DNA from: a virus
DNA: 64,000 nt
IMG/VR virus record: IMGVR_UViG_3300045988_177309
Coordinates: 96,170 to 160,169 of that record
Strand: one strand, 5' to 3'
Made by a program: the position numbers and the translations under genes. How positions within the stretch are numbered: position 1 is the stretch's first letter; each line of letters opens with the position of its first letter. The notes under the pieces are model-generated. The model did no database searches, had not been told where the DNA came from, and saw only the letters and a program-made list of their open reading frames with translations. Positions 8,786-41,029 of this stretch are shown here, one piece after another.

Positions 8786-9757
8786 TTATTTTATACTATA
8801 TCCAAATTCTTTTGCTTTATAAAAATCTTGCCAATAATCTTCTCGTTCATCCAAAAGTGAACGATCACACTCTTCAATTACTTCAAAAGTAAAGTTTTCT
8901 ACTCCAATTTCTTGCATCGCGGGATACAGTTTATTGCGCGTAGCGGGCTCAGCCCCTATGCCGCGTTTAATGTGTTGTCTAAAACGCTCGGCTAGGTTGG
9001 CCGCCTGGCCGATATAACACTTTTGATTCTCAATATTAGTAATTTTATAAATGCCGCAATGAACACCTGAGCCAATTACTCGTCCTATTAAATCAGTATA
9101 AGGTTTTTCATAATAAACTTTCCAAATTACTTTATTAATAGGTTCGGGGTCGCGCAATAAATGTGCTACTGAACGTATTGCCGCGATTTCTTCTATATCT
9201 ATTGGAGTAAGCATACAACGATAAAAATCTATATTTAATCGTTTTTCTTCCTCTCGTTTTGCGGCTTCGGCTGCTGCGGTTGCCTTAGCTTGGTATTCCG
9301 TAACTTGAGCTTGTAATTCTAAAAGCTTTTTTTGATTGCTTTCTTCAAGATCCAAAAATTCTTTAGAATAATTTTTTAAAGTTTCTAAATATTCTTCTTT
9401 GTATTCTTCTTCAGCATCTTGATAAGCTTCTTCTAAAACTCGTATAGTATTATCTAATTTTTCTTTTGCAAGTTGTAATTGTTGTTTTAAAAACACTTCT
9501 CCAGATTGAGTGGCTTGTTGTTCTAAAGAAGAAATACTTGACTCAATTTCTTTCTTTCTTGTTTGAAGCGAAGTCACACCAATCTAAAGTTCTTTTATAT
9601 TATTTTCTAAATTCTATTTTTTAGTTGATAAATCATTATTTAATTTCTCAATATCTGAATTATACTGCTAAGTCTTTTGGACTTTTGGTGACAGTATAAG
9701 ATAAATAATTAACCCACCAAGAAATAATCCTAATATACAAAATAAAAAAGGTGTCAT
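8786..9757 (-). CDS. GIY-YIG nuclease-domain protein with N-terminal TM helix and coiled coil; 3 in-frame TAG (9584, 9614, 9668)
   Basis: The ORF extends 60 codons upstream of the track start through three TAGs to an ATG at 9757. The added N-terminus reads MTPFLFCILGLFLGGLIIYLIL plus a continuing heptad-like coiled coil. The C-terminus carries GIYKITN...YIGQA. The ATG overlaps the upstream stop (ATGA). Confidence 0.7.
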
Positions 9758-10515
9758 ATTAAAAAATTATCTCCCATAATAGATGATAAAGTTATATTAT
9801 CAATTTCTGTATAAGGAATACGCTTTAAAACATAACCATGTTCTTTACACCAAGCATTTTTAAAAGCATCTTTTTTCTATCGCTGCTCTAAAGTATCTCT
9901 AAAGAAATTTTGATCACACTCTTTAAAATGCTATATTCCATCATATTCTAATAAAAATGCATTATTAATAAAAAAATCAAAACGAGGATGCTATAAAGTA
10001 TCTTCATAATTACATTCTTTAAAAACTTTTTCAGTTTCAAAAGGTATATTATTTTCTGTTAAAATTTTTTTAATTTTTCGCACCCCTTTAGAATCAAAAG
10101 AATGCCCACACGATTCAATTCTATGATGTTTTAAATCATGTGCAGAAACATAATGAATTTTTCCGCAAGAGCATCTACATTCCCATACCACACTATTATT
10201 ATTTCTTTTTTCTGTTGGATGCAATGCAGTTAGTTCACCAAAAATTTGACCTGTTAAATCTAGAGCATTTTTAATATGAGCTTTTTTTAAATTTTTTATT
10301 CTACTTTCTTGATTTTGACAACCGCACGATTTTGTATTTCCAGAAATTAAATTACTCTATCTTACTAAAATAATATTTTTTTCTGAACAGTCACATTGAC
10401 ACCACCACTAAGATTGACGATGTCCTGAAGGACTAACATAATACGGCCCTCTTGATAAAACTGTTAAGTGATTAAATTTTTTTGCTATAAAATCTTCGTC
10501 TTTTATTTTAGCCAT
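9754..10515 (-). CDS. homing-endonuclease-like protein: two W-C-x-C-x-CG zinc-ribbon repeats + C-terminal DUF559/Vsr-like PD-(D/E)xK domain (LLEYDGI-TAG-HF); 5 in-frame TAG
   Basis: Single frame from the ATG at 10515 (RBS GAGGTAA) to the TGA at 9754. It contains track ORF 9991-10224 and five TAGs. It is paralogous to the 40151-41029 gene. Confidence 0.7.
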
Positions 10516-10618
10516 TTTATAATTACCTCATATATAAATAATGAGGAAGAAAATTTTCTCCCTCATTATTATTTTAAATTTTTAAAAGACGAACTTTACA
10601 GTTTTGTCCAGAAAAAAA

Positions 10619-10888
10619 TTACTCAGCATCCTCGGCATCGGGATCAAAAGCCATACCCGCTGCAGTCAAACTAAGAAATTTTACGCTTCGATGTGTGCCA
10701 TCCTCAAGTTCAATTTCTGCGGGAGTACGAATACCCAGACCCTTGCGTTGTATAGCACTGGTAAAAATACCATCCACAGAACGCTTTTCAAAACCGAGAG
10801 CTTCAGCTACATCAGCAGAAGTAACGTTCTAACCATTTACACTCTTGAGATAATCGAGGACCTTGCGGCTATTTTCTTTCATTGCCAT
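10619..10888 (-). CDS. small winged-helix DNA-binding protein (89 aa); 1 TAG (10829-10831)
   Basis: ATG GCA ATG start. The product is coherent across the TAG. TAA stop. Missed by the ORF track. Confidence 0.55.
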
Positions 10889-10987
10889 AATAATTAAATT
10901 CTCCTAAATATTATAATTTTTATTTTATTTTATTTGTTAAGCATTTTTTAGCTTGTGTAATAATTATATCAAAAAAATTTTGATTTG

Positions 10988-11182
10988 TCAAGAATTTTTA
11001 TCCATTATTTCTTGAACTAATTCATCAAGAAGTAATATATCATCTAAGGAGTCAAGGCGATTGGTAATATCCATTACCTTTTGCTATGCCTGATAAACTT
11101 TCTGCTTATCTTCATTAGCCTCAATAATTTTTTCCGCTTCAACAATTTGTTTAGCAAAATTCTTGAGTTCTTTCTATTTCAT
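10988..11182 (-). CDS. small coiled-coil protein (64 aa); 2 TAG
   Basis: RBS AAGGAAAAAAAA plus ATG. A TTGAAT-17-TATAAT promoter lies upstream. Confidence 0.4.
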
Positions 11183-11214
11183 TAAATTTTTTTTCCTTAA
11201 TTTTTACAAGTATA

Positions 11215-39264: not shown

Positions 39265-39300
39265 AAAAAATACCTCTTTACGTTTAATATTTATAATTAT

Positions 39301-39329
39301 ATTATAACATAAAGAGGTAACAAAGTCAA
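39301..39329 (-). promoter_or_regulatory. promoter TTGACT-17-TATAAT upstream of glyA
   Basis: Minus strand reads TTGACTTTGTTACCTCTTTATGTTATAAT. Overlaps a long-stem hairpin. Confidence 0.5.
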
Positions 39330-39334
39330 TTTAT

Positions 39335-40135
39335 TTATTCCATAAAATCAGCCAAATCATATATATCTTCATATATCATTTGTGCATTAGAATTTAGTCT
39401 GCGCTCAGCATGGTAATGTCCACAAAACCACATACGATAATCAATGTTTGCCTCAATCTCACTTAGAAACATTTCTGTGGTTTTATCTACTGTAGATTGA
39501 TCAATATTCGGTAAGAACAAATCAGTAGGCTCCCATTGCACAGGACAAGTATGAGACAATACAATATCAAAATCTTCACCTTGTACTGCATTAAAAATTT
39601 CATGTTGTTCTTGAGTACTGAGCTGCTCATCATAAAACCAATGAGCAAAGGTTTGAATGAAGTTACGATTCTCAGGAGTAACCGATTGAGCATTAATCCC
39701 TATACGCGCAAGTCGATAATATTTATCGACAGAATATGCTCCACCAATTACAAGAGTGCGCCATTGGTTTAAGTAATAAATACCACCATCTTTAAAATAT
39801 TTAATGTTGGAGAACTCTTCCTCAACCCAAACTTCTCCGCGTACATTTTCATCATATACCTGAGTTATATTCGCTATATTCTCAGGACGCTCTTCATGAT
39901 TACCCCGCACCATATACCAAGTATATCCACTATTTTGAAGTATTCTTTTCAGGTGCTTGTCATTTTCATTAAGCAAATAATTAAGCGCGGCATCTCCAAG
40001 AATAATAATGCCAGTCTCATCAGGCGGATAATCAGCTTGTATGCCCCAATCATTATTAAAGAGAGAACGAAAGCGAGAAAAATTACCATGAGTATCGCCC
40101 GTAATAAGCCAATGCTTAATCACAATTATCATCAT
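39335..40135 (-). CDS. calcineurin-like metallophosphoesterase (Ser/Thr phosphatase-like)
   Basis: Motifs GDTHG, GDAA...N, GNHE and GHYH. Confidence 0.75.
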   Translation of the reverse strand: MMIIVIKHWLITGDTHGNFSRFRSLFNNDWGIQADYPPDETGIIILGDAALNYLLNENDKHLKRILQNSGYTWYMVRGNHEERPENIANITQVYDENVRGEVWVEEEFSNIKYFKDGGIYYLNQWRTLVIGGAYSVDKYYRLARIGINAQSVTPENRNFIQTFAHWFYDEQLSTQEQHEIFNAVQGEDFDIVLSHTCPVQWEPTDLFLPNIDQSTVDKTTEMFLSEIEANIDYRMWFCGHYHAERRLNSNAQMIYEDIYDLADFME

Positions 40136-40150
40136 CTCCTTTTAATCATT

Positions 40151-41029
40151 TTATATTTCAATTTCTAAATCATTTAGAACTATTTCATTTCGTTTCCAAT
40201 ATGGAATTCTTACTAACTTAATATTTTTCTTTTTTGCAAAATCAGTTTTTATTTTATCTGTTTCTTTCTGTTCGTTTAATGTTTGCTTAAAAAAAGGAGT
40301 TTCAATATAATGCTATTCTCCATCAAATTCTATTAATTGAATGACCTATTTATCATTATTTAAAATAGCAAAATCATAACGTCGATCAGGAAGATCTGAA
40401 AAAATATATTCTGATTTATATTTTATATTATTTACATCAAGGATTTCTTTAATTTTTATTTCTCCAATAGATTTTCCTTGCAAACAACCACAAGATTGAG
40501 TATTGCCAGTCTATAAATGATTGGTAGAAACATAACAAATATTACCACAGTCACATTGGCATTCCCAAATCTAATTTCCTGATTTTGTCCGATCTGATGT
40601 GGCTTTTATTACAGTTAATTTACCATATCGTTTTCCTGTTAAATTAACCCTATATCTTTTAGCAAACTTTTCACTGCCTAAATTTCGACAACCACAAGAA
40701 ACATTATCTCCAACTCTTAATCCCTCTGTTGTCGCATAACAAATATTTCCACATTCACATTGACATTTCCACAAAGCACTTCCATGTCTATTCTTATTAG
40801 TATAATCTACAACAGTTAATAAACCAAATTTTTGCCCAATTAAATCCTTTTTTTTAATCGAACTACATCCACAGGATTTTATTCCTTTCATTTTTCTAAT
40901 TTGTCGAGAAGATTTATAACAAATATTTCCACATTCACACTAACATTTCCAAACAATAGATCGGTCTTTTCTTTCGCCACTATCTTGTAAAATAGTTAAT
41001 TTATCAATTTTTTGACCTACTTGAATCAC
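40151..41029 (-). CDS. homing-endonuclease-like protein, paralog of 9754-10515: three zinc-ribbon repeats (WKCQCECGNICY...SCGC) + DUF559/Vsr-like domain (LIEFDGE-TAG-HY); 5 in-frame TAG
   Basis: Track ORF 40571-40891 extends upstream to a GTG at about 41029 (SD AGGTGA) and downstream through TAGs to TAA 40151. Confidence 0.65.

Follow-up and report, generated by a model that had tools for sequence, protein, structure and literature searches.

The DNA described here is a stretch of 64,000 nucleotides (the window), positions 96,170 to 160,169 of the IMG/VR virus record IMGVR_UViG_3300045988_177309, a 162,542-bp scaffold from a human-gut metagenome. The window has a G+C content of about 31%, and its minus strand holds nearly all genes. 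Two paralogous minus-strand genes, denoted gene A and gene B, each combine cysteine-rich repeat modules with a C-terminal nuclease domain and contain five in-frame TAG codons. These candidate homing endonuclease genes and their parts are the following.

9754-10515, minus strand: gene A, putative free-standing Vsr-like (EDxHD-type) homing endonuclease gene, 253 amino acids, two repeats, TGA stop
10318-10491, minus strand: gene A repeat 1, amino acids 9-66, WWCQCDCS ... SCGC, includes TAG codons 36 and 53
10102-10260, minus strand: gene A repeat 2, amino acids 86-138, WECRCSCG ... SCGH (His replaces the last Cys)
9757-10101, minus strand: gene A nuclease domain, amino acids 139-253, RFDF ... LEYDGI(TAG)H ... 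D..K ... RIPY
9931-9933, minus strand: gene A TAG codon 195, the Gln of DGxQH
10408-10410, 10357-10359, 9991-9993 and 9877-9879, minus strand: gene A TAG codons 36, 53, 175 and 213
40151-41029, minus strand: gene B, paralog of gene A, 292 amino acids, GTG start, TAA stop, three repeats and nuclease domain
40865-41023, minus strand: gene B repeat 1, amino acids 3-55, includes TAG codon 30
40688-40846, minus strand: gene B repeat 2, amino acids 62-114, without TAG
40484-40645, minus strand: gene B repeat 3, amino acids 129-182, includes TAG codons 153 and 173
40154-40483, minus strand: gene B nuclease domain, amino acids 183-292, includes TAG codons 228 and 239
40313-40315, minus strand: gene B TAG codon 239, the Gln of DGxQH
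40940-40942, 40571-40573, 40511-40513 and 40346-40348, minus strand: gene B TAG codons 30, 153, 173 and 228

A first-pass annotation, made from the sequence alone, had placed two genes of common architecture at these coordinates. Translation of the plus strand yields no open reading frame in either interval. On the minus strand both genes are present and read through without frameshifts once TAG is taken as a sense codon, and the two proteins align with 35% identity over 252 amino acids (E-value = 3e-40). Each gene carries exactly the five in-frame TAG codons it had been credited with. Frame 0 of both genes contains no TAA and no TGA, and the other two frames contain 13-18 TAA codons each. Thus these are intact open reading frames under a code in which TAG is sense, not decayed ones. 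Gene B and a 76%-identical ortholog (L086) show dN (nonsynonymous divergence) = 0.13 and dS (synonymous divergence) = 0.96, a dN/dS ratio of about 0.14, and gene B is under purifying selection. The stop codon of gene A overlaps the start of the downstream gene (ATGA).

The repeat module was searched for with a regular expression for W-x-C-x-C-x-C-G / C-G-C in all six frames of the window, and was found solely in gene A (2 copies) and gene B (3 copies). The copy number of two to three proposed earlier thus stands; the proposed unit of about 45 amino acids corresponds to the conserved core (about 45-50 amino acids), the period of the repeat being about 55-65. Five cysteines of the module are invariant or nearly so (W-x-C-x-C-x-C-G ... 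S-C-G-C), and metal binding is likely for this reason. The label of zinc ribbon is not established. When gene B repeat 2 is modelled alone, the prediction consists of three beta-strands and a short helix, with a predicted local distance difference test score (pLDDT) of 82.7. The number of repeats in homologs ranges from 2 to at least 8; some of these proteins have the same nuclease domain, some an AP2 domain, and others no further domain. Both the location of the repeats N-terminal to the nuclease and the AP2 fusions suggest that the repeats bind DNA. No Pfam family covers the repeat, and the N-terminal region gives no helix-turn-helix or NUMOD match. PF20137, Topo_VI_alpha, cNMP_binding and other entries listed for repeat homologs were rejected as not being real matches. 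The repeat is a widespread modular domain with neither a Pfam family nor a solved structure, and is a target for structural and DNA-recognition work.

The sole Pfam family detected in the nuclease domain is DUF2726 (PF10881), to which gene B scores 26.7 bits (E-value = 5e-6; gathering threshold 24.7). The Pfam models DUF559 and Vsr give no match to either protein at E<=1, and Pfam HNH gives no match to A or B. For gene B residues 47-292, an AlphaFold2 model based on 57 homologs reaches a pLDDT of 90.5, and in this model the nuclease domain displays a Vsr-like PD-(D/E)xK fold. The earlier description of a DUF559/Vsr-like module is thus upheld as to the Vsr-like fold and amended as to the family, which is DUF2726 rather than DUF559. 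PHROG families 374/559 (annotated as "HNH endonuclease"), 9084 ("homing endonuclease") and 7140 ("intron encoded nuclease") are matched with E-values of 1e-15 to 4e-47. The first of these labels is a misnomer, given the missing Pfam HNH match and the predicted Vsr-like fold. More than 6,000 database homologs at E<=1e-10 carry the repeat, the nuclease domain or both. Among structural neighbors in BFVD, a viral structure library, the two-part architecture is common, and the labels include "Group I intron-associated VSR homing endonuclease", "Homing endonuclease", "DUF2726" and "Restriction enzyme". NCBIfam gives no usable match and PADLOC no match.

In the 57-sequence alignment, residues E190, D219, E234, D236, H240, D258, K261 and R274 (gene B numbering) are invariant. 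Written as motifs, the conserved positions are E(GE), D(FDF), E-x-D-G-x-Q-H and D-x-x-K. The EDxHD homing endonucleases, a family whose prototype is I-Bth0305I, include the free-standing Hef enzymes (PMC3239194). Gene B residues E190, D219, (E234/D236), H240 and D258 fall in the same order as E170, D196, N208, H213 and D222 of I-Bth0305I, a correspondence mapped by order and spacing and not by superposition.

The relation of the two genes to their surroundings was seen by comparison with a sister genome, IMGVR_UViG_3300045988_175607 (175,955 bp), of which loci L083 and L001 are stretches. It is collinear with the window and most proteins are 85-98% identical. The features concerned are as follows.

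9767-10616, minus strand: gene A cassette with upstream leader, 850 bp; about 37 unrelated bp are found instead in the sister genome (L083 12536-12571)
10537-10570, minus strand: hairpin with a 15-bp stem inside the gene A cassette, about 20 nt upstream of the gene A ribosome-binding site
10963-10991, minus strand: perfect extended sigma-70 promoter (TTGACA-17-TATAAT) at the head of the operon holding the inserted gene A
40106-41135, minus strand: gene B variable slot, 1,030 bp; the sister genome (L001 7221-8021) has an unrelated open reading frame of 267 amino acids without Pfam match

The flanks of the gene A cassette show about 88% nucleotide identity to the sister genome. Homology breaks off at 10617, where the small upstream gene has its stop codon, and is found again from 9766, nine bases ahead of the start codon of the downstream gene. 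The replacement of about 37 bp in the sister genome forms a terminator hairpin. The 111-nt leader of gene A is folded as well (z = -5.0), and its hairpin may, as predicted, be a terminator or attenuator. The promoter lies upstream of the small gene that precedes gene A. The sister genome has a third paralog, with two repeats and one TAG; the two genes on either side of it overlap each other in the window (36730-36733). Presence or absence and position of these genes thus vary between close relatives. Such polymorphism, free of target-site duplication, is expected of free-standing homing endonuclease genes, and it supports the selfish nature proposed in the first-pass annotation. Close to gene A (within about 300 bp) the identity to the sister genome is 82-90%, down from 93-98%. 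This dip is suggestive of co-conversion or of target divergence and is not diagnostic. Intron-encoded status was rejected; both genes lie between other genes, and Rfam detects no intron anywhere in the window.

Further insertions are found in other relatives. At L040 (2821-5681) a 323-amino-acid family member with five TAG codons splits the NAD-dependent DNA ligase gene (ligA) into two open reading frames at the linker that joins the OB and Zn-finger domains, with overlapping stop and start codons. The L044 member is located between AAA_24 and YorH. In L094, a distant relative, the slot upstream of the metallophosphoesterase gene is again filled by a family member, and the DUF2828 gene has family members next to it in L088, L105 and L109. 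In L088 (1488-4891) they are present on both sides of it, and in L105 (4927-7128) about 700 bp interrupt that gene. In the window itself, genes A and B sit in replication and nucleotide-metabolism modules. The gene directly downstream of gene A (8786-9757, minus strand) is conserved in the sister genome and carries three TAG codons; its product consists of a transmembrane helix at the N-terminus, a coiled coil (about 180 amino acids) and a C-terminal GIY-YIG domain (Pfam E-value = 7e-11).

The phage reads TAG as glutamine (genetic code 15) and is distantly related to SPbeta and to Enterococcus EF1-type phages. The isolates with the nearest DnaB are Enterococcus EF5/VRE9-type and SPbeta-type phages (about 40% amino acid identity). 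A megablast search with 25 kb of the window against GenBank phages gave no match, therefore no close relative has a name. The study of phAss-1 groups TAG-recoded gut phages with Enterococcus phage EF1 (PMC10607447). In genes A and B, in-frame stops are TAG only, the TAG codons include conserved Gln columns, TAG and CAG interchange between orthologs and a CUA tRNA gene is present, all of which are marks of code 15. The Gln of (E)(Y/F)DGxQH is written as TAG in both genes, as had been stated from the sequence alone, and that column is Q in 26 of the 27 aligned family members when TAG is counted as Gln. TAG codon 30 of gene B is the conserved Gln of C-Q-C in the repeat. In the flanking genes, TAG is exchanged for CAG and the reverse between the window and L083. 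In-frame TAG is also found in other window genes, namely SHMT, PG_binding_1 (lysin-like), a DHH-family gene and a methyltransferase-like gene.

An amber suppressor tRNA gene is situated upstream of gene B. Its features, and a further promoter of the same kind, are given here.

41669-41743, minus strand: amber suppressor tRNA with anticodon CUA, found with ARAGORN, 640 bp upstream of gene B
41785-41813, minus strand: perfect extended sigma-70 promoter, 42 nt upstream of tRNA(CUA)
41591-41617, minus strand: hairpin resembling an intrinsic terminator (12 bp, then a T run) at the end of the tRNA(CUA) transcription unit
18718-18746, minus strand: perfect extended sigma-70 promoter upstream of gyrB

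According to ARAGORN, tRNA(CUA) has a canonical cloverleaf and T-loop, a U1.C72 mismatch, G73 and a D stem of 3 bp. It is conserved in the sister genome (L001) with a single change, from G.U to G-C in the anticodon stem. Alignment to phage tRNA-Gln(UUG) showed no close relationship; therefore the assignment of glutamine rests on the evidence of the codon columns. Three perfect TTGACA-17-TATAAT promoters occur in the window as compared with 0.02 expected by chance. Genes A and B had been proposed to depend on a phage suppressor for expression, and the data agree with this. If TAG is not suppressed, translation stops at codon 36 (gene A) or codon 30 (gene B), and the CUA tRNA gene is present. 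With five in-frame TAG codons starting this early, no nuclease domain would be made until tRNA(CUA) is active.

With TAG as sense, 53 of 680 Gln-type codons (7.8%) in 78 non-overlapping minus-strand open reading frames of the window are TAG, and 55 of the 78 have none. TAG accounts for 5 of 12 Gln codons in gene A (binomial P = 0.0014 against the window share) and 5 of 17 in gene B (P = 0.008). Together this is 10/29 compared with 43/651 in the other open reading frames (Fisher P = 2.3e-5). None of the immediate neighbors (ligase, gyrase A, metallophosphoesterase, the DUF2828 gene and SHMT) has more than one TAG, and the GIY-YIG endonuclease gene of the window has none among 10 Gln codons. The first-pass statement that A and B have the highest TAG density in the window does not hold. 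The PIN/PhoH open reading frame at 25720-26619 has seven TAG codons, or 2.3 per 100 amino acids vs 2.0 for A and 1.7 for B (six codons if counted from its likelier start), and several short open reading frames are denser than A and B as well. Across 21 related TAG-using loci, family members have 19.4% TAG among Gln codons vs 6.7% in the flanking open reading frames (Mantel-Haenszel odds ratio 3.0, P = 3e-8). The enrichment is heterogeneous, being strong at 7 of the 21 loci, with four members (L096, L107, L108 and L163) showing no TAG.

The positions of the TAG codons are less conserved than the genes. Genes A and B have only two Gln columns in common in their alignment. Gene B and its ortholog L086 share one of seven TAG-bearing Gln columns; their 13 common Gln columns consist of 1 TAG/TAG, 3 TAG/CAR, 3 CAR/TAG and 6 CAR/CAR. 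With one common TAG position at 76% identity, TAG positions must turn over rapidly. The DGxQH column is TAG in 4 of 10 recoded homologs, and the overall TAG share of those genes is 41% (P = 0.64). A TAG conserved by design at this site was therefore rejected, the proportion being at chance level. In the family members of L098 and L112, TAG is also found at the Asp of E-x-D-G (EY-TAG-G), and L102 has Asn there, so this position tolerates D, N and Q. The family member at L087 (3971-4882) has an in-frame TAA at the Gln column that matches TAG213 of gene A; it is probably a copy in decay on a contig where TAG is not used.

Genes A and B are likely to be diverged copies of a free-standing EDxHD/Vsr-like homing endonuclease family residing in a code-15 phage. 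In such a system, the two or three beta-rich Cys modules (about 55 amino acids each) would bind metal and lie on DNA along an extended target. The nuclease would then cut the cognate sequence in a co-infecting genome that does not have the gene, and recombinational repair from the gene-carrying genome would copy the cassette across. Amber suppression by the phage tRNA(CUA), which would be transcribed from its own promoter and ended at its own terminator, would be needed before the nuclease is made. The TAG content is read most economically as free exchange of TAG and CAG in genes that are not required until the suppressor is available, and the amber codons need not be a purpose-built switch. 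Neighboring early genes would be kept free of TAG while the nuclease genes drift.

Several observations weigh against this interpretation. Gene A scores 15 bits to DUF2726 (E-value = 0.02), which is under the threshold, and has Val at the first motif Glu (GVRKI, where homologs have GE..I). To judge from these two features, gene A may be catalytically weakened. Searches of PDB sequences with phmmer and with the 57-sequence profile (E<=10) retrieved neither 3r3p nor Vsr and returned noise only, so the connection to I-Bth0305I and Vsr is one of fold. A target-site signature was sought through identity to the sister genome, and no target sequence was identified. The polymorphism could have come about by deletion in the relative rather than by gain here. 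For the suppressor, the Rfam tRNA model does not report tRNA(CUA) at the gathering score or at E<=1.

A different view of the TAG codons is that they are selected, either as a temporal switch for a potentially toxic nuclease or as a genetic-code firewall for a mobile element. The excess of TAG in A and B over the rest of the window (P = 2e-5) and at the 21 loci fits this view, as do the early first TAG codons, and Borges et al. made the same proposal for an intron endonuclease of Agate phages that is rich in TGA. On this view, host and phage DNA would be protected early in infection and the mobile element would be tied to code-15 genomes. However, orthologs as close as 76% identity differ in their TAG positions, TAG is not favored at the Gln of the catalytic motif, the four TAG-free members lie in TAG-using contigs, and the GIY-YIG endonuclease gene of the same window does without TAG. 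In addition, tRNA(CUA) lies behind a consensus host-type sigma-70 promoter of a type common to gyrB, which suggests early rather than late availability of the suppressor. The flanks consist of replication genes, a class that is poor in TAG in such phages, and the contrast with A and B may reflect constraint on these neighbors. Selection of the ambers is accordingly considered unlikely; in particular, it is doubtful that they are kept so that nuclease is made only where the phage suppressor is active, with the alternative code as a barrier to mobile-element traffic.

Purifying selection on gene B would also be expected of a domesticated nuclease that no longer homes and that degrades host or competitor DNA, excludes co-infecting relatives or serves as a DNA-binding regulator. 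The filled slot upstream of the metallophosphoesterase gene in the distant relative L094, the loss of the first motif Glu in gene A, and repeat homologs that have no nuclease domain or are fused to AP2 point in the same direction. Against it, copy number and positions vary between close relatives, insertion occurs at gene boundaries and inside ligA in L040, the L087 homolog with its TAA resembles a decaying copy, and PADLOC has no match. Variable copies, insertions and decay are the usual marks of selfish turnover, and domestication appears improbable. In T4, marker exclusion by the seg and mob genes is a homing-type activity as well. That the genes are pseudogenes broken by ordinary stops in a standard-code genome would agree with the six pieces into which translation table 11 cuts each open reading frame. 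This explanation is effectively refuted. The frame is interrupted by TAG alone and never by TAA or TGA, despite the many TAA codons in the other frames; there are no frameshifts and dN/dS is about 0.14; and TAG falls on conserved Gln columns, occurs in frame in other genes and is accompanied by a CUA tRNA.

Other open reading frames of the window display split or unusual arrangements. The gyrB gene is split (15555-18682, minus strand); an open reading frame at 16940-18682 contains HATPase_c, DNA_gyraseB and Toprim, and one of 115 amino acids at 15555-15902 contains DNA_gyraseB_C. Between the two parts is a GIY-YIG open reading frame of 290 amino acids (15871-16743) without TAG. A PhoH-like gene is found in two pieces about 5 kb apart (20292-20732 and 25720-26619, minus strand), with the same arrangement in the relative. 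One piece has PIN_4 and PhoH profile positions 8-62 and carries the seven TAG codons; the other has positions 93-194. Radical-SAM and further open reading frames are situated between them. The AAA_24 gene is contiguous in the window (5605-6591), and in the sister genome (L083 15748-18136) it is found in three pieces. The intervals that separate them, of about 300 bp and about 1,070 bp, could represent introns, inteins or inserted genes. An 814-amino-acid open reading frame at 30755-33199 (minus strand) matches Pfam MVP_shoulder and Vault_3 (major vault protein-like), which is unusual in a phage.

The closest known enzymes are those of the EDxHD class, I-Bth0305I of Bacillus phage 0305phi8-36 and the free-standing Hef of T4-like phages. 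Genes A and B appear to resemble them in the E...D...x...H...D order of residues, to judge by order and spacing, and resemble them in the combination of a modular N-terminal DNA-binding region with a C-terminal nuclease. EDxHD genes are likewise phage-borne and found in DNA-metabolism gene neighborhoods, and free-standing members are known (PMC3239194). Differences are that the N-terminus of A and B consists of two or three Cys-rich beta modules and not of NUMOD or helix-turn-helix elements, and that the genes lie between other genes, not in introns. Both use code 15, each with five ambers, gene A lacks the first Glu, and neither protein has HMMER similarity to PDB sequences.

Stop-rich endonuclease genes have been reported in Agate phages. 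Borges et al. (bioRxiv 10.1101/2021.08.26.457843) described a homing endonuclease among early genes that is richer in reassigned stops than its neighbors and proposed a translational block. The likeness lies in a stop-rich endonuclease gene whose synthesis would be blocked until suppression. In the Agate case TGA is read as Trp and the gene is a group I intron open reading frame, whereas in A and B TAG is read as Gln and the genes are free-standing and Vsr-like. The phage group differs as well, being related to SPbeta, EF1 and Phassvirus-type phages, and its suppressor tRNA has a consensus host-type promoter.

The third comparison is with the seg and mob genes of T4. These are also intergenic, vary in presence between related phages, and occur as several paralogs among replication and nucleotide-metabolism genes. 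Neighboring genes are sometimes split, as gyrB is in the window by the GIY-YIG open reading frame, an arrangement that resembles gene 39 / mobA / gene 60 of T4. The T4 enzymes are of the GIY-YIG and HNH types and are written in the standard code, unlike the Vsr-like A and B. The EDxHD class, free-standing phage homing endonuclease genes, code-15 gut phages and stop-rich homing endonucleases are thus already known. What is added here is a TAG/Gln counterpart in free-standing Vsr-like genes, a delimited pair of alleles with and without the homing endonuclease gene, and a family that is widely TAG-rich. Stop codon richness of selfish nucleases is thereby extended from TGA in intron endonucleases to TAG in free-standing genes. 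The allele pair formed by the window and IMGVR_UViG_3300045988_175607 could be used for cleavage and homing tests of this large uncharacterized Vsr-like branch.

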